Below are positions 9,048 to 32,905 of a DNA stretch of 64,000 bases, one piece after another. Below the pieces are notes generated by a model, which worked only from the letters and a program-made list of their open reading frames with translations, was not told where the DNA came from and did no database searches. The first letter of the stretch is position 1, and every line of letters begins with the position of its first letter. The DNA lies in the NCBI GenBank assembly GCA_965223435.1, contig CBDCWQ010000023.1, positions 930,607 through 994,606 on the forward strand. Reading direction: 5' to 3'. The DNA is from Myxococcota bacterium (GTDB lineage Bacteria; Myxococcota; Kuafuiibacteriia; Kuafuiibacteriales; Kuafuiibacteriaceae). Both the position numbers and the translations under genes were made by a program.

Positions 9048-9750
9048 CTAGCTCGATCCGCAACGGATTTGCTTTTGACCCACACTATATGCATGAGGAG
9101 TCGAGACTCCACCTGTGCACTCTCCTACGCACCGAGATCTGAAAGCACGTTCAAAAAGGGGCTCTTGTGTCGAGTGCTCCCGAACGTAGTTCAAATACAA
9201 ATGCATTTGTCCCGCATCAGCGTGTGTGAATTTACCCAGCTCTAAGTCGATGGCCACCATGCATCGAAGGCGCCGGTGGAGAAGAGGAGGTCTACCCGAA
9301 ACCATTGGTCTCCAACCCGTAGGCGTTTTTGGCGGCCGACGAAAGTAAAGTCGCCGCCCAGTTTCGAGCAAGAAACTTTCGAGGTGAAGAATGAGCGCTT
9401 CCTCAAGATCCGTTTCAGAATATTCGTGTTTGAGGTTAAGAAAGTCTTCTCTACATCCAAATGAATGCGCGTCACGGAAACCGAAAAGTCATAGCGGACC
9501 CGAGGCTCACTCAAGGTCTGGACAACCGTCTCATCGACCAGATTTTCGAGAAGATGGGCGGGCAGATGGAGCGCTTCCTCTGCGGGCGACACGAAGCTGC
9601 TGTTCATCAGCGTCTCGGTCGAAGATTGGAGGGCCGGCGATTCTTCTCCATCGCCGCGTTCTAAATGCTCGACAAGCAGCTCGACACTTGCCGCTGATTT
9701 AGCCTTGGCCTCTTCGGAAAGCTCAATTTCTTCTACTGGGACGTCCATGG
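9048..9750 (-). pseudogene. YhcG-like (DUF1016, PDDEXK nuclease) 3' fragment, frameshifted. Paralogous to the intact copy at 58563-59840.
   Basis: 'GGDFTFVGRQKRLRVGDQWFRVDLLF' and 'LELGKFTHADAGQMHLYLNYVREH' occur in two different frames. About 80% nucleotide identity to 58800-58930. Confidence 0.55.
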
Positions 9751-10583
9751 AAACCTCTTGCGGTCGTTCTGACGACGTAGCCACCTTGGCTAGCTTTTTC
9801 TCTATTTTCTCGGCTTTGGTCTCATGTCTGTGCTGCAAGTCTGTGTACCGAGCGGCCAAGGCACGACTTCGATCTCGTTGCTGTAAGAGTCGTTCGCGCG
9901 GCTCGGAGAACACGCATTTCGAAGAGGAGACCAAACCTTGGAGAGGGTCACCACTCTTACGCTTTTCACTCGATGGGATGATGCCCAGCGCTCGACCGAG
10001 CTCCCGAGTATAGGTGCGATATTTCTGGGACGACCCTTGCCCCGACGGTATCCTTAGGCCAAAGATATCCGACGGGCACCGGCATGCGTAGCTCACCACG
10101 TTGTGCTTTCGCCTGAGCTGCGTCCAGAAGCCGACGCCTCAATACCGTTAGCTCGAACTCACTCATTGTACCCTTAAGTCCGAGAAGCAGTCGGTCATTG
10201 GGCATCTTCGGATCGTAGATGCCATCGGTGTCAATAACACGCGCGTCAACAAGAGCACACAACTCCACGAGATGATGCCAGTCGCGCCCATTGCGAGCCA
10301 AACGCGAGGCCTCAAGACAGAATACGGCACCGACTACACCTTCGCAGATCTGGCCAACCAAACTCCGAAAACCTGGACGTTCCACGGTGCCACTCGCCGT
10401 GACGCCGAGGTCGTCATCAATGATAGCAACGTCTTTGAAGCCATAGCTCTTGGCTAGGTCTGAAAGCTCATACTGCCGGCGCTGGCTTTCAAGGTTCTCA
10501 GTCACCTGCATACCGGTTGACTGTCTTACATATACAATCGCTCGACGTTGAATGACACTACCAGGAATCTCACAAGGCCTCAT
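9750..10583 (-). pseudogene. Large serine recombinase, frameshifted at about 10000 and truncated. Catalytic domain is intact; the recombinase-domain start continues in a second frame.
   Basis: N-terminus 'AIVYVRQSTGMQ' is the catalytic Ser motif. 'ISHLYSGARS' then 'YRTYTRELGRALGIIPS' (the IARELN..GIPTP motif) appears in the overlapping frame of ORF 9242-10099. Confidence 0.6.
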
Positions 10584-11014
10584 CGCGCTCCCCCTCTTCG
10601 CCTTCGTCGGCGAGACTGAACCCGGTCGCCTTGAGCAAAAGTTGAGCCAGGAGCTCGACCGCTGTTGTGCGCCACTTGGGATCTAGAGTCGAGAGATGGA
10701 TCGGGCTCTGAAACAGTCGAAGCTGTGCTACCAGTTTCGGCTTGCGGGCTTGATTCGGCATTGGCGTCCTCCTTGAGACGACTCTTGCCTACTGTCGAAG
10801 ACTGATCGAGCTCTACTTCTGCGAGGATTCTCTTTAGTTCCTCCATCGCGCAAACGGACACCCGGGGCGGCCCGAGCTTCATATGACTACATGCCCCCGA
10901 ATCGAACATCCAAGCGGGTATAGCTGCGCCAGAATCGTTCGATAGGAAACAGATGTACACTCGTTCTGCTCCGCGCGCCTCTTCATAAGCGACATCAACT
11001 TTCTTGCCAAACAA
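10580..11014 (-). CDS. Hypothetical protein translationally coupled (ATGA overlap) to the serine recombinase gene. Its N-terminus may have been removed by the IS66 fragment.
   Basis: ATGA overlap at 10580-10583. Low-complexity C-terminal half. No recognisable domain. Confidence 0.3.
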   Translation of the reverse strand: MFGKKVDVAYEEARGAERVYICFLSNDSGAAIPAWMFDSGACSHMKLGPPRVSVCAMEELKRILAEVELDQSSTVGKSRLKEDANAESSPQAETGSTASTVSEPDPSLDSRSQVAHNSGRAPGSTFAQGDRVQSRRRRRRGGAR

Positions 11015-11075
11015 CGGATGCCATGGATACGCAATACGAGCGCTAAATTCGGCATGGGCAGAATGAGCTTGGGCT

Positions 11076-11398
11076 TGCTTCCGGAAGAAAGTCCTGGCTC
11101 TTTGCTGGCTCCAGGGGAGGCGCCGAGCGATTCGCCGACGTCCTTTCGGTTGTCTCCACCGCCGACGCAGCAGGCGTCGATTGTGGAAAGTACCTTCCTA
11201 GCATCATCGCCAACATCGACACTTGGCCGAACCGGGAGCTCGATCAGCTCTTGCCAGCCAACTGGCAAACCGCGCTCGAAGATTTCCTTCGCGAGAATAA
11301 CATTCAGCACTCCACACCTGCTGTACATTGAGCGCAGACCTCAACGTTACACCATGAAGCGGGCCGGGCTAGACGCCCCAAAAAGAACAGTTACGTTA
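11076..11398 (+). mobile_element. Solo 3' fragment (~320 bp) of an IS66-family element, covering the last ~85 codons of tnpC plus the right terminal IR.
   Basis: Near-identical to 55430-55752 of the complete IS66 in this window. The IR 'cgccccaaaaagaacagttacgtta' is present. The antisense ORF 10879-11328 shares its N-terminus with antisense ORF 54573-55682. Confidence 0.8.
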
Positions 11399-11414
11399 AA
11401 AGGGTGTGGGCTTA

Positions 11415-11449
11415 GGGAGCTGTGGCTGTTGGTAGCAGCCACAGCTCCC
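11415..11449. repeat. Perfect 14-bp inverted repeat with a 7-nt loop (GGGAGCTGTGGCTG-ttggtag-CAGCCACAGCTCCC), immediately outside the IS66 IR.
   Basis: Read directly from the sequence. Followed by 'gccctttgtt'. Could be a terminator or a protein-binding palindrome. Confidence 0.6.
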
Positions 11450-11835: not shown

Positions 11836-13623
11836 TTAGGCAGTGGTGTGGACCAGGCTAATAAATTTTTCCCCCGGGGCTAAAGGGGGACCGTCTGGTG
11901 AGAGGACTCGTACAGCGCCATCAGATGGTGACCACGCCACTAGCGGAATGGCTCCGTTGTCGTAAGTTTCCTGGAAGGCCTCGTAAGTAAACTGCTCAGT
12001 AATTGTTGTCACCTTGAACTCACCATTCTTCAGCAAGGCGTCTGTAAGTTCTTCATGCGTATGGCCTGAGGCAAAGTACCGGGCACGAAGATGGATTGGA
12101 TACCGGTGCGTGTCATCTTCCATCGATGGGGTTAGCTGATAGACTTCATGGCCGAAGACGTCCTGAAAATGGAGCCCGCAAAGTGCATTGGCTTCATCGT
12201 TGGGAAGAAGGGCGATCATGCGGCCGAGGCCGTCATAGTCGAGGCGACTCATGGCATGTTCAGAGAGTGCATGGGCATGTTGTGCATCGAGTCCGGCCAT
12301 CCGCGCTTTGGTGACTTGTCCACGGTCAGAATCAACCAAAACAACAGGTACGCCTTCTTGTTTGAGGCACTGCGCAAAGGCTCGGGCTAGGCGGTCTGCC
12401 CCCACGATGAGAAAACCCGCTGGGTTTTGGTCTCCGAGGCGAAGGATTCGAGCCAAGGGCGCCGCGCTTAGTCCATATACGGCGACCGTCGACACAATGA
12501 CGAGGAAGGTCACCGGCATGATCTGGCCGGCGCCCTGAAAGCCTTCCTCCGTGAGACGAATACCAAAGACGGAAGAAACCGCCGCAGCGACAATGCCTCG
12601 GGGGGCAAGCCAAGCAAGAAAAACACGTTCCTTCCAAGAAAGTGAGGTGCCGATAGTGGACAAATACGTCGCGAGAGGGCGAACAACCAAAATGAGCGCC
12701 AGAATAAAGGCGACTACGCCCAGGGGGATTTGAGAAAAAGAGGTCAGCTCAATTCTCGCCGCCAAGAGGACAAAAAGGACAGATATGATCGCAACCGTGA
12801 TGTGTTCGGCAAACTCAACGATGGGCCGTACGTCAACGGAGCGCTGGGATGCGAGCGCAATACCCATGATCGTGACGGAAAAAAGACCCGATTCCGACTG
12901 AATGTGGTTCGATGCAGTGAAGACCACAAGGGCCAGAGTGATGGTGCTGCTATTGGTTAAAAAAGCGGGGAGCCACCGTTTCTTCAGGAGCATCTGAATG
13001 AGAAACGCACCTCCGATCCCGAGGAGCAAAGCAACCGCTGCGGTTTTGATGATACCAGTGACAACAACCCAAAACGCACCCTCAACACTGGGAACACGAA
13101 CCGCTTGAAAGACCAAGATGGCTAAAACTGCGCCCACCGGATCGTTGAGGATCCCTTCGAGTTTAATGAGCGATCCAAGTGTTGCCTTTGGCTTAACGTG
13201 ACGAAGAAGAGGTCCGATGACGGTGGGGCCCGTCACCACCAAGATTGCACCGAGTAGGAGTGCCATCGGCCAAGAGAAATCCAAGAAGTGGTGCGCGGCA
13301 GCAGCGCTCAGTGCCCACGTCACCAGGAGTCCGATGGTCACCAGCCTACGGACGGGCTGTGCCACCAGACGAATCTCCGAAAGGGGTGCGCCAAGGCCCC
13401 CCTCAAATAGAACGATCGCGGCCGCTATGGATACGATGGGCAAGGTTGCAGGACCGAGAAGTGCCCCTGGATCCACCAGGTTTGTGACAGGGCCGGCGAC
13501 AAAACCGACCGAGAGCAGCATCAATATAGAGGGAAATCTTAGGCGCCAAGCGATCCACTGCGAAATCGCTCCGAGCGCCAAGACAGTCACTAAGCCAACG
13601 ATAAGATGCTCGTTCACAGGATT
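11836..13623 (-). CDS. CPA1-family Na+/H+ antiporter (NhaP-type) with a C-terminal cytoplasmic regulatory domain. Start probably the GTG at 13623; the ORF tool extends to 13710.
   Basis: ~12 TM helices followed by a ~200-aa soluble domain. The N-terminal extension 'MLGVPAPHSKRRCFFRQTPCRL' looks non-coding. Confidence 0.8.
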   Translation of the reverse strand, partial: NPVNEHLIVGLVTVLALGAISQWIAWRLRFPSILMLLSVGFVAGPVTNLVDPGALLGPATLPIVSIAAAIVLFEGGLGAPLSEIRLVAQPVRRLVTIGLLVTWALSAAAAHHFLDFSWPMALLLGAILVVTGPTVIGPLLRHVKPKATLGSLIKLEGILNDPVGAVLAILVFQAVRVPSVEGAFWVVVTGIIKTAAVALLLGIGGAFLIQMLLKKRWLPAFLTNSSTITLALVVFTASNHIQSESGLFSVTIMGIALASQRSVDVRPIVEFAEHITVAIISVLFVLLAARIELTSFSQIPLGVVAFILALILVVRPLATYLSTIGTSLSWKERVFLAWLAPRGIVAAAVSSVFGIRLTEEGFQGAGQIMPVTFLVIVSTVAVYGLSAAPLARILRLGDQNPAGFLIVGADRLARAFAQCLKQEGVPVVLVDSDRGQVTKARMAGLDAQHAHALSEHAMSRLDYDGLGRMIALLPNDEANALCGLHFQDVFGHEVYQLTPSMEDDTHRYPIHLRARYFASGHTHEELTDALLKNGEFKVTTITEQFTYEAFQETYDNGAIPLVAWSPSDGAVRVLSPDGPPLAPGEKFISLVHTTA

Positions 13624-13643
13624 CACCGAACAGGAGAAAATGC

Positions 13644-14648
13644 CTAGGCGGCAAGGAGTTTGTCGAAAGAAGCACCTTCTTTTCGAATGAGGCGCCGGTA
13701 CGCCCAACAAATTTTTCTAAGGCGCTCGGGATGAGCAGCAAGTCGTTCCACTTCAGCCCAACGGGCCCACTCGCGTGCGATGCTCCACGTTGGGTCGTCT
13801 ACCTCGCAGTTCGGTAGCCGATAGTGAAAAGCGGGGCGGGCGCTGACGAGCTCGGGTTCTTGTACCTTAGATTCTACCGCCTCTTTATCTCGTTCGGCGA
13901 GAATGGGAAGCAGGTCCAAAGCTCGATTTCGCGTTGGATTCATTGAGACGTAGTCCGCGAGAAATTCATCGAACGAGGGCGAGTATTGCGGATCGAGGAT
14001 GCGTTCTCGGTACGTCTTCGGAAACGGCTCGATGTACGATCCGATCCGGCGCGATAGGTCAGGATCGATATCCTTGATGAGCCAATCCCACAGGAGAACA
14101 AATGCTCTGGTGTAGGCGAGCAAAGTCACCGTTTTCAAGTCTGGGGCCTCCACATTGAGGTGAAGTCCAAACGCATAAAATGGTGAGGCGCCGGTCCCTT
14201 TCGCGCCTGCGTTCACGAGTTTTCTACGTAGAATCTCTAGCTCGGGCAAATCGTTCAATTGAATCGGTGGGGCTGTGATCTCACACGGAACCACCGCTTC
14301 CGCGAAAAACTCAGCGCCGTCAGTGAGTAGATTCGCTAGCTTTGAGTCTTTGACATCCAATCCCAGACGGTCAAAAAACGAAAGATGTTTCTCCTTTTTG
14401 AGAAACTGAGCGTCAAAGGAAACGACGAAGACTCCCCTTCGCGTATCTTGGATTTCGATCTCAAACGCAGATTTTTTGGCAATTTTGCCCCCGAACTGTT
14501 GGCAGACAAGCTTAGCCACGCACTCGATGTCCAGGCCGGAGAATTCGAGCTCAACGCCAATCCGACGAGGCTGTCCAGACTGAGTAAGCAACCGAAGAGG
14601 TCGTACGAAGGCAGAGGGGCTCGGGATACGATAACTTGAATTCCGCAT
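13644..14648 (-). CDS. Putative glutamine-synthetase-like amidoligase (Amidoligase_2-like), first gene of an operon with the NhaP antiporter.
   Basis: 'RIGVELEFSG' (E-x-E metal motif) and 'FGLHLNVEAPD'. Size ~300 aa. The assignment is from memory of the family. Confidence 0.5.
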   Translation of the reverse strand: MRNSSYRIPSPSAFVRPLRLLTQSGQPRRIGVELEFSGLDIECVAKLVCQQFGGKIAKKSAFEIEIQDTRRGVFVVSFDAQFLKKEKHLSFFDRLGLDVKDSKLANLLTDGAEFFAEAVVPCEITAPPIQLNDLPELEILRRKLVNAGAKGTGASPFYAFGLHLNVEAPDLKTVTLLAYTRAFVLLWDWLIKDIDPDLSRRIGSYIEPFPKTYRERILDPQYSPSFDEFLADYVSMNPTRNRALDLLPILAERDKEAVESKVQEPELVSARPAFHYRLPNCEVDDPTWSIAREWARWAEVERLAAHPERLRKICWAYRRLIRKEGASFDKLLAA

Positions 14649-14662
14649 TGGTCAGATAGGAT

Positions 14663-14678
14663 TGCAAGTCCTGTTCCA
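14663..14678 (-). promoter_or_regulatory. Sigma-54 promoter candidate, minus strand: TGGAAC-aggac-TTGCA.
   Basis: One core mismatch with exact spacing. ~10-50 nt upstream of the amidoligase start, depending on which start is chosen. Confidence 0.5.
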
Positions 14679-14766
14679 GGATTTGGATGGTGAAAGCCCA
14701 GGTTTTCATGTGGCGCGCATGCCACACTGAGGCAATTTGCCCCGTCCTTGAGGAAGCTTACCGTCG

Positions 14767-15456
14767 CTACTCGCCGCCGACCTTTTCCATAAAGTGATTC
14801 ATGTTGTCGGCCTCGCCGACGAGCATCAGTGTATCGCCCTCGTTGATTCGATACTCAAGGTCAGGGATTCTCAGTCGGGGGCGAACCCCGGAAGCCACTG
14901 GGCTGCTCCCGCTTCGAAAACCGAGGACCATGATCCCGAAGCGTTCGAAAATCTTGGCCTCTTGAAGGGATTTACCCATCAAAGGGCCCGATGCGGCCCA
15001 GGGGATGACGCGGTAGTTTTGGGCAAACTCAATGAGGTCCTCCGAAATGGGTGCGAACAACTCATTGGCTACTCTTCGTCCCATTTCGGCCTCAACCTCT
15101 AGGGTTCGTGTCGCGCCGACTGTCTTGAGGATATCTGCTTGCCTTGGCGTCGCGGCCCGAACAACGATCTGCGAAATACCGAGTTCTTTGAGCGTCGCGA
15201 CGGTAAGGACCGAGGCTTCCAGGCTTTCCCCGTAAGTCACGATGGCAGCATCGATCTTTTCAATACCGAGATTTTCAAGGACTTCCTTTTGTGCACTGTC
15301 GCCCACGAAGGCGGCGCTAGACCGTGACTTTATCTCCTCGATTGTTTTCTCATTGGCATCCAATACCATCACATCGACGCCCGACTCCCAAAGAGCTTCC
15401 GCCAAGGCGCGGCCGAGGCGCCCGAGTCCGACGACCAAGATTTTCTTGTTCTCCAT
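14767..15456 (-). CDS. trkA: TrkA/KtrA potassium-uptake regulatory subunit (RCK N and C domains).
   Basis: 'KILVVGLGRLGRALAEAL' is a Rossmann motif, followed by a TrkA-C domain. Start taken at the internal Met 'MENKK'. Confidence 0.85.
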   Translation of the reverse strand: MENKKILVVGLGRLGRALAEALWESGVDVMVLDANEKTIEEIKSRSSAAFVGDSAQKEVLENLGIEKIDAAIVTYGESLEASVLTVATLKELGISQIVVRAATPRQADILKTVGATRTLEVEAEMGRRVANELFAPISEDLIEFAQNYRVIPWAASGPLMGKSLQEAKIFERFGIMVLGFRSGSSPVASGVRPRLRIPDLEYRINEGDTLMLVGEADNMNHFMEKVGGE

Positions 15457-15464
15457 GGTGTACC

Positions 15465-17276
15465 TTACCCGATTAAGACATCTTCTTTTGGAAACTGGCA
15501 AGGTGAAGGCTCGCGGCTATGCATGAGTGCCAAAGCAAAGGCCAGGGGACCTACCCGGCCGACCAACATGGTCAAGGTCACCAAGAGCTTTCCCGCCACC
15601 GAAAGCTCTTGGGTGAGGCCCGTGGACAGCCCTACAGTGGCGAAGGCACTAAAGGCTTCGAAAGAGATTGCCATGGAAGGTGCATCTTCGGTCACCAGAA
15701 GACAAAACATGACCGCAGAGACGACCAGGACGCTGGTGAAAAATACTCCCAACACACGTTTCACCAGGCGTGTCGACAGTTTTCTACCTAACAGGTGGGG
15801 GTCTTTGCTGTTCGCGGCTTCTGCCCGAAACGTTGCGAATAAGATAGCCAACGACGTGGTTTTGATACCACCACCGGTTGAACCTGGAGATGCTCCCACA
15901 AACATCACCAAACAAATGAACATGAGGGCAGGTGCGCCGACTTGTGAAAAATCAACCGTATTGAATCCAGCAGTGCGCGCCGTGATAGATTGAAAGAGTC
16001 CTCCAAGAATTCTCTCGAAAAACGTGCGTTCTTTGAGCGCGTTGTTCCATTCCAGTGCACCGAAGACTGCTGCGGTGACAAGCGTTAAACAAAGAGAAGT
16101 CCAAAGGACAACACGGGTATTAAGGCTTAGGCGGTCGGGTCTTTGTCCTCGTACTTTTTGCCAGAGTCTCTGGCCCAGTTCATCTAGGACAGGAAACCCC
16201 AGTCCTCCTGCTACGATCAACAGCATCAAAGCGAAGTTGATACCCCAGTGGTTGAAGTAGGGCTCCATCCCGCTTTCGAGAATAGAAAACCCGGCGTTGC
16301 AGAATGCGCTCACGGCATGGAACAACGCTTGCCAGAAGGGCTCCCATACGGCGGCTGCCCCATCAGAATCCATGCGAAAGAAGGCGTACAGAATCGCTGT
16401 GCCGATGCTCTCGAAGAGCAGGGTGTAAGCGATGGCCCCAAGGACGATACGTTTAAGTTGAGCCGCTGAGGACGCATCGACTGCCTGGGCGAGCACGGCT
16501 TGAGACCGAAAGCGCAATCGATTGCCCGCAATGAATACAAGGACGGACGACAAGGTCATGATCCCGAGGCCCCCGACTTGGATCAAGACCAAAATGATCG
16601 TTTGACCAAAAGGCGTATATGTTTCGGCCACGTTGTGAACCACGAGTCCGGTGACACAAACCGCGCTGACCGCCGTGAACAAGCTATCAATAAACGAAGC
16701 GCTGTTCTGTCCCCGGACTGCTTGGGGCAGAGCCAGGAGTAGCGCACCGATAATGCCCAAAAGCCCAAAGGCCATCGTCGCGAGGCGCTGAGGCTTTTCC
16801 GACCAATCGATGAGGACCTCTTTGGCTCCCATCGTTTTCGTAAGCAGACCGATGGCCACGGAGACCAGGAGGGCGGCGGTGTAGATGCGATGGGTGCCGA
16901 CCCACTCTGAAGTGGGTGGATTGGACTGAATGACCACAAGCCACTTTTGAACAAGGCTCAAGAGGAGCACCCCGGCACTTGCGATCCGAACCAACAGTAC
17001 GAACCCGCGGCTCTTCTGAAGCAGCCTAGAACTTGTCTCGGTGCGATCTCGCCTGAATAGGCCGATGATGAATGGAATCGCGAGCGTAGACTCGAGGAGT
17101 GTGAGTCCCAACGAAACGTACGCACGTACCCCGAGCAAGTAGTCCATGGTGAGGATGATGGCGGCCCCCACCATGCTCTGGATCCCTGCTCGGGTTGTTC
17201 CGGATCCGGTGGCGGTTGCCCCATCCTCGACGTTCATGTGCTCAAGTTCTGGGACATATGCGTTTGCCACGACCAC
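15465..17276 (-). CDS. trkH: TrkH/KtrB-family K+ transporter membrane subunit.
   Basis: Multi-pass membrane protein with the repeated M1PM2 architecture and GLG-type selectivity motifs. Adjacent to trkA. Confidence 0.85.
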   Translation of the reverse strand: MVVANAYVPELEHMNVEDGATATGSGTTRAGIQSMVGAAIILTMDYLLGVRAYVSLGLTLLESTLAIPFIIGLFRRDRTETSSRLLQKSRGFVLLVRIASAGVLLLSLVQKWLVVIQSNPPTSEWVGTHRIYTAALLVSVAIGLLTKTMGAKEVLIDWSEKPQRLATMAFGLLGIIGALLLALPQAVRGQNSASFIDSLFTAVSAVCVTGLVVHNVAETYTPFGQTIILVLIQVGGLGIMTLSSVLVFIAGNRLRFRSQAVLAQAVDASSAAQLKRIVLGAIAYTLLFESIGTAILYAFFRMDSDGAAAVWEPFWQALFHAVSAFCNAGFSILESGMEPYFNHWGINFALMLLIVAGGLGFPVLDELGQRLWQKVRGQRPDRLSLNTRVVLWTSLCLTLVTAAVFGALEWNNALKERTFFERILGGLFQSITARTAGFNTVDFSQVGAPALMFICLVMFVGASPGSTGGGIKTTSLAILFATFRAEAANSKDPHLLGRKLSTRLVKRVLGVFFTSVLVVSAVMFCLLVTEDAPSMAISFEAFSAFATVGLSTGLTQELSVAGKLLVTLTMLVGRVGPLAFALALMHSREPSPCQFPKEDVLIG

Positions 17277-17307: not shown

Positions 17308-17601
17308 TCAAGAGTTTTTCAGACGCAGATACCCGCCCTTCAAGTCGGCCGCGATTTTCTTGGCCGTGGACTCTAGAACTTCTGAAGCTTGGGCTGACTT
17401 CTTTCCGAGCTCCTCGAGGGTGGACTCGAGCTTAAGCCATTGCGGCTCCAATTTTTCTAGGGCTTCTTTCTTCCCCAGATGGGCTTGGACCTTCAGTTCG
17501 TCCCGGGTGCGTCGCAGCTCCTCCAGGTCTCTCTTAAACTCCTCTTTCAGGTTTGTCATAAACGAATGCTCCTTTCGCAGGAACATACCAGCAACTTTCA
17601 T
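17308..17601 (-). CDS. Small coiled-coil hypothetical protein.
   Basis: 97 aa, K/E-rich heptads. Lies between nhaA and trkH. Confidence 0.4.
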   Translation of the reverse strand: MKVAGMFLRKEHSFMTNLKEEFKRDLEELRRTRDELKVQAHLGKKEALEKLEPQWLKLESTLEELGKKSAQASEVLESTAKKIAADLKGGYLRLKNS

Positions 17602-18954
17602 GCCAACGATTTCGAAGACGCGGGACCGCAGTATCTCAGCCAGATGAAGCCCAAGGTTCCTGACGCCAGCGACCCTAGAAGAATCCCTAATTTGGCCTGA
17701 TCGAGACGGGCAGCAGTAGGGAAAGCAAGGCCGGCGATAAACAGAGACATTGTAAACCCGATCCCCGCCAGCCAGCTTGTTCCCAGGACGTGGCGGAAGG
17801 AAACCCCATTCGGTAGTTCAGCGACGCCGATTCTGACTGCGAACCATGAACAAAGGGTGATGCCGACCGGTTTTCCGACAAAGAGCCCAAGGGCGATGCC
17901 CAAGCTTTCCGCCGATGTCCACACCGAGGTCAGGTCTTCAGGGAGGGTGACCCCCGCGTTGGCGAGGGCAAACAGGGGAAGCACACAATATGTCGCCACC
18001 GGCGCGAGGCTATGCTCCAGACGCTGTAAGGGCGCGCTGGCGAGCGCGATGGTGTTCGCAATGCTCTCCAACACCTGCTGTTGTTCCTTGGAGTTCAAAG
18101 CGTGATCTTCTGGGAGTCCAGCCGCATGAAGATCGGCCAAGTGTGCTTGCATGTTTTCGTTAAACTCGCTCCCATCGAGACGGGTTCGGGCCGGTATCAC
18201 GAATGACACCAACAGCGCGGCAATCGTGGCGTGCACGCCAGACTGGAGGAAGGCGAGCCACATCAACAGACCGATGATCAAGTAGATGAGGGGCGAGCGA
18301 ACGCGCAGTCGATTCGCGACGACGCACGCACTGAATATGAGGCCTCCCGCGCCAAGGCTCGCGAGGGCGAGATGGTCCGTGTAAAATAGTGCAATGACCA
18401 ACACCGCGCCAATGTCGTCAACGATTGCGAGTGCGCTCAAGAAGACCTTGAGTCCAACGGGGACATGGTGCCTCACAAGCGCGAGTATCCCGAGGGCAAA
18501 AGCGATATCGGTCGCCATCGGAATGCCCCAGCCGACGACGGTGGCTTCCCCACGATTGAGAAGATAGTAGATGGCGGCAGGTACGGCCATCCCGCCCACG
18601 GCGGCGACGGCTGGAAGGGTTGCCTGTCTTAGCGTTGAGAGTTCACCCACCAGCAGCTCACGTTTGATTTCGAGGCCGACTAGAAAGAAGAAGATCCCCA
18701 TGAGACCGTCATTGACCCAGTGAAGAGATGATTTTCCGAGGTGCCATGGCCCAATGGCAATAGAAATTTCGGTGTGAAGAAGCGCGTGGTACCGCGCGTG
18801 CCACGGCGTATTCGCAAACACGAGTGCCAAGAGGGCTGCCCCCAAGAGCAAGAAGGCACCGGCCAGGGGATGTGCCAGGAACGCCTGGACGGGTTGCACA
18901 AGGCGATCAATGGGACGATCCTGGAGGACGGTCGGTGTTTCATCGCCTCGCACC
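17598..18954 (-). CDS. nhaA: NhaA Na+/H+ antiporter. Start chosen at the internal Met; the ORF runs to 19010.
   Basis: 'GLMGIFFFLVGLEIKRELLVGELS' is the NhaA signature region. ~12 TM helices. Confidence 0.85.
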
Positions 18955-19168
18955 ATGAAAACTGGGGGACGATCCGTGGAACTCACTCTTCTTGCTTGCG
19001 TTTTTTTCACCCTCGAAACAAGTCCTAATAGCCCAGCACTTTTCGCTGTGGCGTATTGTCACGATTGGGACGTTCAGCCTCGCACACGCCGTGGCGTTCA
19101 GACGCGGAAGGGGTTCTTTCTACATCGCGCGGGATAAACCGGAAGCGGTCGTGTTGCATGTATCATGG

Positions 19169-20796: not shown

Positions 20797-20837
20797 ACGT
20801 TTTGAACGTTTCTTCAGCACCTAGTATCCCAAGCAGA

Positions 20838-20852
20838 GCAAGTCTTGTGCCA
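20838..20852 (-). promoter_or_regulatory. Exact-consensus sigma-54 promoter, minus strand: TGGCAC-aagac-TTGC. Immediately upstream of the USP gene.
   Basis: Perfect core match. ~30 nt upstream of the MTKLL start. Confidence 0.6.
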
Positions 20853-23486: not shown

Positions 23487-23786
23487 TGTCTTTCTCTTTG
23501 TTTTGGACACCTTCTTTGAGCGTGGTACTTGGGCCAGAGCACTTCCCGCTGCCCGCCTCGCTTGGGGCCGGGTGTTTTTCCGGCTCAAGGCCCGGGCGGC
23601 CGCCGTGGCGGTTCTCTTTGTTGTTTTGCTGTTGCCGCGAACCTGTCGCAGTGCACTGGCTGCGGCGCTCTTTCCCGCCGGTGTGGTCTTTGGGTTCTGA
23701 AGGGCTCTTCCTGCCGCAGACGCTGTCTTTTTTTGGGTTGTTCTCGTTTTTTTTTGTTCTGTCATCTTGGGATAACTGTTCAGCAA
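23466..23786 (-). CDS. Small highly basic Ala/Lys/Arg/Thr-rich protein with histone-H1-like repeats (AA[GA]RAL...KTT). Possible nucleoid-associated protein.
   Basis: Three to four repeats: 'AAGRALQNPKTT', 'AASALRQVRGNSKTTKRTA', 'AAARALSRKN', 'AAGSALAQVPRSKK'. Lys codons give a local AT-rich patch. No clear Shine-Dalgarno. Confidence 0.35.
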   Translation of the reverse strand: MLNSYPKMTEQKKTRTTQKKTASAAGRALQNPKTTPAGKSAAASALRQVRGNSKTTKRTATAAARALSRKNTRPQARRAAGSALAQVPRSKKVSKTKRKTSRRAPA

Positions 23787-24004
23787 ATTTCATGCCACCC
23801 GCTCGTGGGACGGGAATATTCGGCTTCGAGAACCGGAATACGTCTGTCGTGGATCGGCGCGGTGGGAGGCAAGATGCCTCAACTGAGACAGCCTGACACG
23901 ACGCGGATCTTTTCAGCTGGGAAGTGGGCGTGGGTAGGGCCCATACGGTTGGCAGTACGGATTGGCTCACTTCTTGCTGGAGCGTATACGGTAAGGAGTA
24001 AAGA

Positions 24005-31543: not shown

Positions 31544-32905
31544 ATGGACAGGCCGAAGGGAAAGGTTCTTGTCATCGACGATGACATCGATCTCGCGGAC
31601 ACGCTAAAAATGGGCCTCAAGGGTCGAGGCTATCAAGTTCATACGTTGAACTCCGGCAATGAAGTGGTCACCAAACTTGAATCCGACGATTTTGATGTGG
31701 TCCTCACCGACCTCCAGATGGAAGGTCTCGATGGACTGGGTGTGGCCCGCTATGTGGTGGAGAACCGGGATATCCCGGTGATGATCATGACCGGCCAAGG
31801 AGACATGGACAAGGCCATCGAAGCGATCCGAGCCGGGGTTTACGACTTTCTCCCCAAGCCCGTTGCCCTCGATGTTGTAACCATCGCGCTCGATCGAGCG
31901 ATTCAGCACAAGCGGCTCGGAACTGAGCTTCGACGTTTGAGTGAACAACTCTCGAGTACCCAGACGGCGCTCGACATGATCGGTGAGAGTGGTCCCATCG
32001 AGCAGCTTCGAGATTTGGTGAAGAGAGTTGCTGGTGCTGAGGTTTCCGTGCTGGTGACGGGGGAGAGCGGAACGGGTAAGGAATTGGTCGCACGGGCCCT
32101 CCACAAGGAATCAGGAAAAAAAGGACGCTTCGTCGCTGTGAATTGTGCGGCGCTTCCCGAGACACTTCTAGAAAGTGAACTCTTTGGACACAAGAAGGGG
32201 GCCTTCACGGATGCCCGTACCGAGAAGAAGGGGCTTTTTCTTGAAGCCAATGACGGGACCCTGTTCTTGGATGAGATCGGCGACATGCCCATCGGCATGC
32301 AGGTCAAGCTGCTCCGAGCCCTTCAAGAATCCAAGATACGTCCGGTGGGAGGCACCGAGGAAGTCCACTTCTCGAGCCAGGTCATAGCGGCCACGCATCG
32401 TGATCTAGAGGAAGCGATCGAGGTCGGGGATTTTCGCGAGGACCTCTACTACAGGATCAATGTGGTTCGAATCCCCGTGCCTCCTCTTCGAACGAGGGGC
32501 AACGATATACTCATTTTAGCTCAGCATTTTATCGAAAGAGCCAGGGAAAAGTCCAATCGCCTCGTCAAGGAAATCTCAGAGCCAGCGGCCCACCGGCTTC
32601 TCGCATACGATTGGCCCGGTAATGTGCGCGAGCTGGAAAACTGTATGGAGCGTGCGGTGGCGTTGGCTCGCTTTGACAGGATCACAGCGGAAGATCTTCC
32701 TGAAAAGATCCAGAACTATGATGTGAGTCGGGCGCCGAATGCGATTCTCGCGCCAGAGCTCCTCTCTATGGAGGCACTCGAACGGCGCCACATCCAGAGC
32801 GTTCTCAAAGCTACAGATGGAAACAAGACCCGGGCCGCAGAAATACTGGGCTTCGACCGACGGACCCTCTACCGAAAGATGGAGCGCTTTGGCATGGAGC
32901 TCTAA
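31544..32905 (+). CDS. Sigma-54-dependent response regulator (NtrC family): REC, AAA+ sigma-54 activator and Fis-type HTH domains.
   Basis: 'GESGTGKE' Walker A. The GAFTGA-region motif. C-terminal 'RTLYRKMERFG'. Confidence 0.9.
   Translation: MDRPKGKVLVIDDDIDLADTLKMGLKGRGYQVHTLNSGNEVVTKLESDDFDVVLTDLQMEGLDGLGVARYVVENRDIPVMIMTGQGDMDKAIEAIRAGVYDFLPKPVALDVVTIALDRAIQHKRLGTELRRLSEQLSSTQTALDMIGESGPIEQLRDLVKRVAGAEVSVLVTGESGTGKELVARALHKESGKKGRFVAVNCAALPETLLESELFGHKKGAFTDARTEKKGLFLEANDGTLFLDEIGDMPIGMQVKLLRALQESKIRPVGGTEEVHFSSQVIAATHRDLEEAIEVGDFREDLYYRINVVRIPVPPLRTRGNDILILAQHFIERAREKSNRLVKEISEPAAHRLLAYDWPGNVRELENCMERAVALARFDRITAEDLPEKIQNYDVSRAPNAILAPELLSMEALERRHIQSVLKATDGNKTRAAEILGFDRRTLYRKMERFGMEL

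Follow-up and report, generated by a model that had tools for sequence, protein, structure and literature searches.

Known systems and their relation to the locus

Amidoligase_2 has been a predicted enzyme family since 2008, with no known substrate for any of its members. In the available text of Iyer, Burroughs & Aravind 2008 (PMC2588565), the superfamily of glutamine synthetase (GS) and glutamate-cysteine ligase (GCL) is recognised by a GhExE motif (Ex[EH]) on core strand 1 and an [HD]x[NH] motif on core strand 4. Its characterised members join an ATP-activated carboxylate, nearly always the gamma-carboxylate of glutamate, to ammonia or an amine. For Amidoligase_2, the second family, this text gives a GAT-like thiol peptidase or an Aig2 gamma-glutamyl cyclotransferase as gene neighbours and predicts the synthesis of glutathione-like gamma-glutamyl peptides. 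We analysed an Amidoligase_2 gene (13644-14648, minus strand) in a window of 64 kb, i.e. the whole stretch of DNA under study, from the ~10-Mb genome (23 contigs) of a Myxococcota bacterium. Its product shares with the family described there the hidden Markov model (HMM) match, the size, the GS-like fold, and the GhExE and HxN motifs. However, instead of the usual GAT-like peptidase or Aig2 neighbour, the gene has an NhaP-type antiporter gene downstream and trkA upstream, and the enzyme carries an E77S substitution.

With a probability of about 45%, we read the locus as encoding a gamma-glutamyl-type ligase that has no partner, forms a two-gene unit with an NhaP-RCK antiporter, and is driven by its own sigma-54 promoter within a stress island. 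The module in which an amidoligase is paired with a Peptidase_C26 protein (hereafter C26) has been in print since 2008, though uncharacterised. The partner-less, antiporter-linked and sigma-54-driven copy is a new form of this module. With a naturally partner-less copy that is wired to an antiporter and a stress promoter, the product could be sought under a defined condition (salt, K+ or pH stress) and with a single enzyme, which makes for a simpler system. Should ion balance truly be involved, the K+-glutamate phase of osmoadaptation would gain an enzymatic step; otherwise the locus would be an ordinary lineage-specific reshuffle. A full-text literature search on Amidoligase_2/PF12224 returned, judging by its listing, phage-genome papers only.

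Pairs of a GS-fold ATP-dependent ligase and a neighbouring triad hydrolase that breaks down its product are also known from the degradation of aniline (AtdA1/AtdA2) and 1-naphthylamine (NpaA1/NpaA2), and the modules of the relatives of the window enzyme have the same layout. According to the accessible part of PMC11335346, the hydrolase keeps down the level of the gamma-glutamyl intermediate and is dispensable in NpaA1/NpaA2. NpaA1 (8wwu, Z 11.5) and GmaS (9qur, Z 11.0) are among the best structural matches of the window amidoligase. However, AtdA1 and NpaA1 are type-I GS homologues of ~450 aa that form large oligomers, whereas the window enzyme represents a 334-aa family. There are moreover no catabolic oxygenase or oxidase genes near the window amidoligase. 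We take PuuA/PuuD to be a pair of the same ligase-hydrolase type. YbdK and the GCS2 proteins resemble the window enzyme in size and core fold (1tt4, Z 10.0; 1r8g, the top Foldseek row), but they belong to a different Pfam family and have no sequence-level match to it. An osmotic-stress-induced ATP-dependent amide ligase is also found in the N-acetylglutaminylglutamine amide (NAGGN) pathway (Ngg/AsnO), which uses GNAT/ATP-grasp and class-II amidotransferase families. The general idea is alike, but these enzyme families differ from that of the window amidoligase.

The predicted amidoligase enzyme

By sequence and by structural model, the product of 13644-14648 (334 aa) is predicted to be an intact Amidoligase_2 protein, i.e. 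a GS/GCL-fold carboxylate-amine ligase. A GS-fold amidoligase with E-x-E and HLNVE motifs had been proposed by the original prediction, which was made from the DNA letters without database searches, and both parts of this proposal held. The HMM search assigned the protein to Amidoligase_2 (PF12224; E-value 2.2e-62, 211.6 bits against a cut-off of 22), with the match extending over profile positions 2-243 of 245. The translation contains 'GVELEF' (E33-x-E35) and 'HLNVE' (H163-E167). In an AlphaFold2 (AF2) model built with an alignment of 58 relatives (pLDDT 89, pTM 0.87), strand 29-37 contains G31-V-E33-L-E35 and strand 162-167 contains H163-L-N165, which correspond to GhExE and [HD]x[NH], respectively. 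E33, E35 and N165 are invariant across 81 family sequences.

In a VIA search against all representative chains, the top 19 rows all belonged to the GS superfamily (Z 11.9-7.2, rmsd 4.2-5.2, 195-233 residues aligned), with Z 11.9 for glutamine synthetases. These rows comprised GS, GmaS, the 1-naphthylamine GS, glutamate-cysteine ligases, YbdK, PafA and Dop; the next fold was arginine kinase, at Z 5.5. By sequence, no solved chain gave a significant match to the amidoligase (best E 0.096). The presence of PafA and Dop among the structural matches (Z 7.7-8.1), together with the recurrent link of the family to membrane proteins described below, would fit an enzyme that tags a protein with an amino acid or a peptide, for example the RCK domain of either the antiporter or TrkA, as PafA or RimK do. 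We consider such a protein or peptide ligase very improbable, because GS, GmaS and GCL match better than PafA and no conserved small tag-like ORF stands beside the family. The available text of PMC2588565 agrees on the latter point.

The amidoligase reading frame is intact, and the enzyme has the conserved residue at each of the 31 positions that do not vary among the 58 aligned sequences. At 73 highly conserved columns the window enzyme departs five times, where the family median is three and the maximum nine. Its G+C content at third codon positions (GC3) is 0.56, compared with 0.57-0.65 in the neighbours, and a recent transfer of the gene was discarded for want of a clear compositional signal. 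The closest proteins in a collection of 5.8 billion are 41-48% identical, and a metagenome scan for close relatives returned one weak locus (36% over 57 residues). The genome carries a single Amidoligase_2 gene. Neither PADLOC nor PHROGs gave a match, and a defence or phage reading was therefore dropped. A Klebsiella fimbria paper was also set aside, since its enzyme is an ATP-grasp protein and not an Amidoligase_2 member.

The Peptidase_C26 partner in relatives and its absence from the window

In a scan that kept one genome per species, at least 585 loci were confirmed as relatives of the window amidoligase, and 80 of them were examined. A second set comprised 19 genomes of the same bacterial family, of which seven carry an amidoligase homologue (37-45% identity). 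Neighbours were analysed with crude ORF calls of our own, which were grouped into clusters and turned into a profile. A C26 gene (Pfam 1e-40 to 1e-50) lies immediately downstream on the same strand in 75 of the 80 loci, two of which are truncated at a contig end. Another locus offers just 207 nt of downstream sequence, and four (L001, L010, L015 and L058) have no C26 despite at least 3.9 kb downstream. In all seven of the same-family genomes with a homologue, C26 adjoins the amidoligase. In L058 (6554-7999, plus strand), from Aliidiomarina halalkaliphila, an AIG2-like gamma-glutamyl cyclotransferase gene is located 6 nt upstream of the C26-less amidoligase. This matches the firmicute arrangement given in the available text of Iyer et al. 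(PMC2588565).

Among 30 longer homologues, 27 are fusions of an N-terminal amidoligase with a C-terminal C26 (three of them checked with Pfam). Where the two genes are separate, the stop codon of one commonly overlaps the start codon of the other, and the Cys-His-Glu triad of the partner is invariant. Overlapping or fused genes are typical of enzymes that combine a glutamine amidotransferase (GATase) with a synthetase. These features would be expected if C26 of the relatives were a glutaminase feeding ammonia to the ligase for amidation of a carboxylate, in which case the lone ligase of the window would use free ammonia. We judge this alternative improbable on three grounds. First, the partner matches class-I GATase (1e-12 to 1e-16) far less well than Peptidase_C26. 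Second, a gamma-glutamyl cyclotransferase, which takes the place of the partner in L058 and in the firmicutes of PMC2588565, cannot supply ammonia. Third, known pairs of GS-like and GAT-like proteins are ligase-hydrolase pairs, as far as the accessible part of PMC11335346 goes. By contrast, partners that cleave gamma-glutamyl amides, together with the chemistry of the superfamily, point to a gamma-glutamyl-amine or gamma-glutamyl-peptide ligase, which is the chemistry of our preferred reading. A complex prediction for the amidoligase and C26 of a relative scored 0.00 and tells nothing either way.

No C26 was found in the six reading frames of the 64-kb window, and neither of the usual family neighbours (C26 or Aig2) stands beside the window gene; GGACT was not searched genome-wide. 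The absence of this near-universal partner had escaped the original prediction. The one strong C26 of the genome is encoded on another contig in an unrelated setting, with tetrapyrrole methylase and response-regulator genes and unassigned ORFs around it. It reaches 152 bits on the partner profile, compared with 272-358 for true partners.

The sigma-54-type promoter and its spacing class

The 118-nt spacer after trkA contains the sequence TGGAACAGGACTTGCA (14663-14678, minus strand), which has the form TGGAAC-N5-TTGCA and differs by one mismatch from TGGCAC-N5-TTGCW. It lies 14 nt before the amidoligase ATG at 14648, a start that is favoured by alignment as well. An rpoN gene is present in the genome. 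In the window, the loose pattern TGG-N8-TTGCW occurs 13 times, compared with 4.2 +/- 1.9 in shuffled sequences. The genome as a whole has 50 copies of TGGCAC-N5-TTGCW, compared with 8 and 5 when the spacing is set to N4 and N6 as a control; for TGGAAC-N5-TTGCW there are 12 copies, and 4 and 3 in the respective controls.

The distance from these sites to the start codon revealed a distinct class. The pattern TGG[CA]A[CT]-N5-TTGCW has 104 sites in the whole genome. At 71 of them, an ORF of 80 aa or more opens with an ATG no farther than 120 nt away. At 20 of the 104 sites an ATG follows TTGCW by 12-14 nt, often opening an ORF of several hundred aa, while none of the 77 sites of the spacing controls (N4, N6, N7) has an ATG at this distance. 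The GC element of a sigma-54 promoter lies at -12/-13. Transcripts from sites with an ATG 12-14 nt off would therefore carry only ~2-4 untranslated bases, suggesting that the genome has a class of nearly leaderless sigma-54 transcripts. With an offset of 14 nt and no Shine-Dalgarno sequence, the amidoligase falls into this class, and a nearly leaderless mRNA would account for the missing Shine-Dalgarno. Membership of the class supports both the promoter and ATG 14648. A sigma-54 promoter of the gene's own (TGGAAC-N5-TTGCA) had been predicted; the site is present, and the genome-wide spacing makes it probable that the promoter is real. No paper on leaderless sigma-54 transcripts was found by title or abstract, which is not proof of absence. 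This class is a by-product that may matter more than the amidoligase locus itself.

Three positions in the window were noted alongside the spacing class, all on the minus strand: 14663-14678, 23782-23797 and 20837-20852. A second site of the form TGGAACAG-N3-TTGCA is found in the stress island, ahead of a PRC-barrel gene with a normal Shine-Dalgarno sequence.

The junction between the amidoligase and the antiporter

As listed, the antiporter ORF (11836-13710, minus strand) overlaps the amidoligase by 67 nt. Its start is more likely GTG 13626, giving a gene at 11836-13626, or GTG 13617, which has GGTGA 5 nt upstream; these codons lie 17 and 26 nt past the amidoligase stop, respectively. No convincing terminator was found at the junction. 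The tight same-strand gap and the missing terminator support the amidoligase-nhaP operon of the original prediction, and co-transcription of the two genes is likely on these sequence features.

The antiporter matches Pfam Na_H_Exchanger (3.2e-34, 118.8 bits), a domain that it has in common with the NhaP-type CPA1 proteins MjNhaP1 and PaNhaP (4czb, 4cz8), and has a C-terminal RCK domain (TrkA_N, 6.5e-11). Its best solved relatives are MjNhaP1 of M. jannaschii (4czb, 1.8e-19) and PaNhaP of P. abyssi (8e-11). It differs from these known NhaP-type antiporters, and from the NhaP2/CvrA K+/H+ antiporters, in having the TrkA_N RCK domain, and it scores well below the cut-offs of the NCBIfam K+/H+ equivalogs NF003715/6/4 (139, 139 and 88 bits against 309, 355 and 471). 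Since the closest solved relatives are NhaP proteins, the CPA1/NhaP label that the gene had been given is fair. The sequence contains 'ILNDPVG', whose N-D pair we take to mark CPA1.

Conservation of the amidoligase-antiporter pairing

With the window proteins as queries, an antiporter homologue was found within 7 kb of the amidoligase in one of the 80 relatives' loci (L059). A TrkA homologue was also found in one of the 80, ~5 kb off and on the other strand. The examined flanks of the seven same-family amidoligase loci contain no Trk, NhaA or CPA genes. Conserved adjacency, which the original prediction had named as a check, is thus not seen among these genomes, which reach down to the same family but not to the same genus. 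Its remark that the pairing is not a standard one was correct. The antiporter pairing is a one-genome arrangement, real here and almost never found in other bacteria.

Several results weigh against our preferred reading. A broader CPA profile, run over the 80 loci and the seven same-family loci, uncovered nothing beyond L059 (1/87). Conversely, Amidoligase_2 is absent from the surroundings of the antiporter homologue at all of 16 other loci in the phylum (identity 35-41% for six, 32-39% for the rest), and the pairing may be a lineage-specific accident. In a quick-search tree that kept all of its 88 rows, with long ORF calls cut down to the C-terminal 340-345 residues, the window amidoligase sits on a long, unplaced branch (1.25, compared with a median of 0.44). 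Position 77 is E in 78 of the 81 family sequences, Y in two, and S in the window enzyme alone. S77 shares a strand of the sheet with the invariant D79, which is two positions away; D79 and E123, invariant in the family, are both present. The E77S substitution could reduce or change the activity of the enzyme. In addition, a Foldseek search of the PDB returned weak rows only (best E 0.026). The amidotransferase alternative discussed above also belongs on this side.

These results raise the alternative that the amidoligase is a passenger gene, which a rearrangement or a transfer would have placed between trkA and the antiporter, bereft of its C26 and without any tie to ion transport, and perhaps weakly active or decaying. 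The absence of the pairing from 86 of 87 loci, the 16 antiporter loci without Amidoligase_2, the unique E77S and the long branch would all be expected of such a gene. So would the patchy, polyphyletic distribution of the module within the bacterial family (7 of 19 genomes), whose members are scattered in the tree, and the resolvase and nuclease-like genes ~1.3-2.6 kb beyond the antiporter. In the same tree the partner-less state turns up at least four separate times. However, the frame is intact with every invariant residue kept, the number of deviations is inside the family range, the composition is near that of the neighbours, the spacing to the antiporter is tight, and the geometry of promoter and ATG fits the genome-wide class. 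Independent transport links also occur in relatives, as described in the next section. On balance a passenger gene seems unlikely, though by no means negligible.

Hints of a link to transport in relatives

There are weak hints that connect the family to transport. C26 is followed in 12 of the 80 loci by a gene for a small membrane protein of the DedA/VTT type. In 51 of 79 parsed C26 proteins (L001-L080 and L097-L103), a hydrophobic insert of ~35 aa is located between the GGxD and CRG motifs, and the DedA neighbour accompanies 10 of the 28 insert-less C26 proteins but only one of the 51 that bear the insert. Such a pattern of sequence features suggests that the amidoligase-C26 module may be membrane-associated. 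Fusions are also found among metagenome and NCBI proteins (P0149, P0150 and P0151), namely two clusters of DedA/VTT-amidoligase proteins and one amidoligase-SulP-STAS-cNMP protein (1077 aa, a single metagenome protein).

In L059, the gene order is BON protein, amidoligase, C26, small ORF, antiporter homologue (3e-113) and a second CPA gene. A different arrangement occurs in a same-family genome (G014; L117:5088-10663, plus strand), where a same-strand run encodes a RimK ATP-grasp ligase, an AstE/AspA-like deacylase, an antiporter and a gamma-glutamyltranspeptidase. The antiporter of this run is the closest homologue of that of the window (41% identity), and RimK is a non-homologous glutamate ligase. 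No run of the RimK-AstE type was found at the other 15 antiporter loci. Many relatives bear names that point to halophilic, soda-lake or marine taxa, a judgement made from the names and without a control.

In five of the 80 loci (L011, L016, L019, L045 and L060), an aldehyde dehydrogenase gene stands no more than three genes away from the amidoligase-C26 pair. This neighbour is reminiscent of the Puu gamma-glutamylation pathway.

Proposed mechanism

In the mechanism that we propose, the amidoligase would use ATP to form an acyl phosphate on a carboxylate, probably the gamma-carboxylate of glutamate, and an amine would then attack it to give a gamma-glutamyl-type amide or a gamma-glutamyl peptide. 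The usual C26 hydrolase would have been lost from, or never present in, this genome. The amidoligase gene would be the first of a two-gene unit with the RCK-gated NhaP antiporter, and under stress a sigma-54-type promoter of the unit's own would yield a nearly leaderless mRNA. The unit is part of the sigma-54 stress island and is found just downstream of orf83-trkH-trkA. Gamma-glutamyl chemistry, stress induction and an ion or osmotic role are putative parts of this mechanism. The possible synthesis of an osmoprotectant or compatible solute that the original prediction suggested, and any osmotic or charge-balance role of the product, are inferred from the gene context. No Pfam or NCBIfam match to known osmolyte enzymes was found.

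A more specific version is that the ligase and the antiporter form a stress-induced charge-balancing pair. Glutamate, which accompanies the K+ taken up by Trk as its counter-ion, would be converted by the ligase into a neutral gamma-glutamyl amide, and the co-expressed antiporter would expel the cation. More broadly, Amidoligase_2 modules with or without C26 would serve as membrane-transport-coupled gamma-glutamyl cycles of salt- and alkali-adapted bacteria. We offer the charge-balancing pair and this broader version as a speculation that is quite improbable as it stands.

Gene neighbourhood

Six minus-strand ORFs follow one another from 11.8 to 19.0 kb, assigned from the ORF list with Pfam and NCBIfam. 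The order trkH-trkA-amidoligase-nhaP on this strand, which had been read from the DNA letters, was confirmed together with the gene families. The first of the run is nhaA (17598-19010, minus strand), which encodes a Na+/H+ antiporter (Pfam Na_H_antiport_1, 2.5e-143; TIGR00773, 427 bits against a cut-off of 254). It is followed by a small ORF of 83 aa (17308-17559, minus strand), which starts at an ATG with a Shine-Dalgarno sequence (AAGGAG) and lies directly ahead of trkH. This ORF has no Pfam match; a weak homologue is found in one same-family genome (L101, 6.8e-9). Before the small ORF and trkH there is another sigma-54-type site, TGGCATGAAAGTTGCT (17590-17605, minus strand), with the ATG 30 nt downstream and AAGGAG ahead of it. 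This site overlaps the end of nhaA.

The trkH gene (15465-17276, minus strand) encodes the membrane subunit of a TrkH-family K+ transporter (Pfam TrkH, 6.6e-60; TIGR00933, 320.5 bits, just below the cut-off of 331.15). In the product as listed (603 aa), ~180 residues precede the family match, and these are either an N-terminal extension or the result of a start called too far upstream. The next gene (14767-15501, minus strand) encodes a short TrkA/KtrA-like RCK subunit with one TrkA_N (1.4e-24) and one TrkA_C (8e-10) domain. The two subunits of a Trk/Ktr K+ uptake system, TrkH and RCK, are thus encoded side by side.

The spacer between trkA and the amidoligase also contains a palindrome, TGTGGC-N6-GCCACA (14709-14726), of which this is the only exact copy in the window. 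It is possibly a regulator site or a hairpin, judging from its sequence. As a site shared by several genes for an activator it was rejected, since up to two mismatches gave four matches in the window against 2.6 expected, with no further good copies.

Around this run, at 19-34 kb, the sigma-54 stress island encodes Usp, Pmp3, Dps-like, PLD, OmpA and MscS proteins as well as an NtrC-type activator (31544-32905) and its kinase. Shortly past the antiporter gene are a resolvase gene (9966-10583) and a fragment of a YhcG-like nuclease gene (9242-10099), and a perfect hairpin with a 16-bp stem is found at 11415-11449. The zone from 9242 to 11449 that these three features occupy may be the edge of a mobile element.

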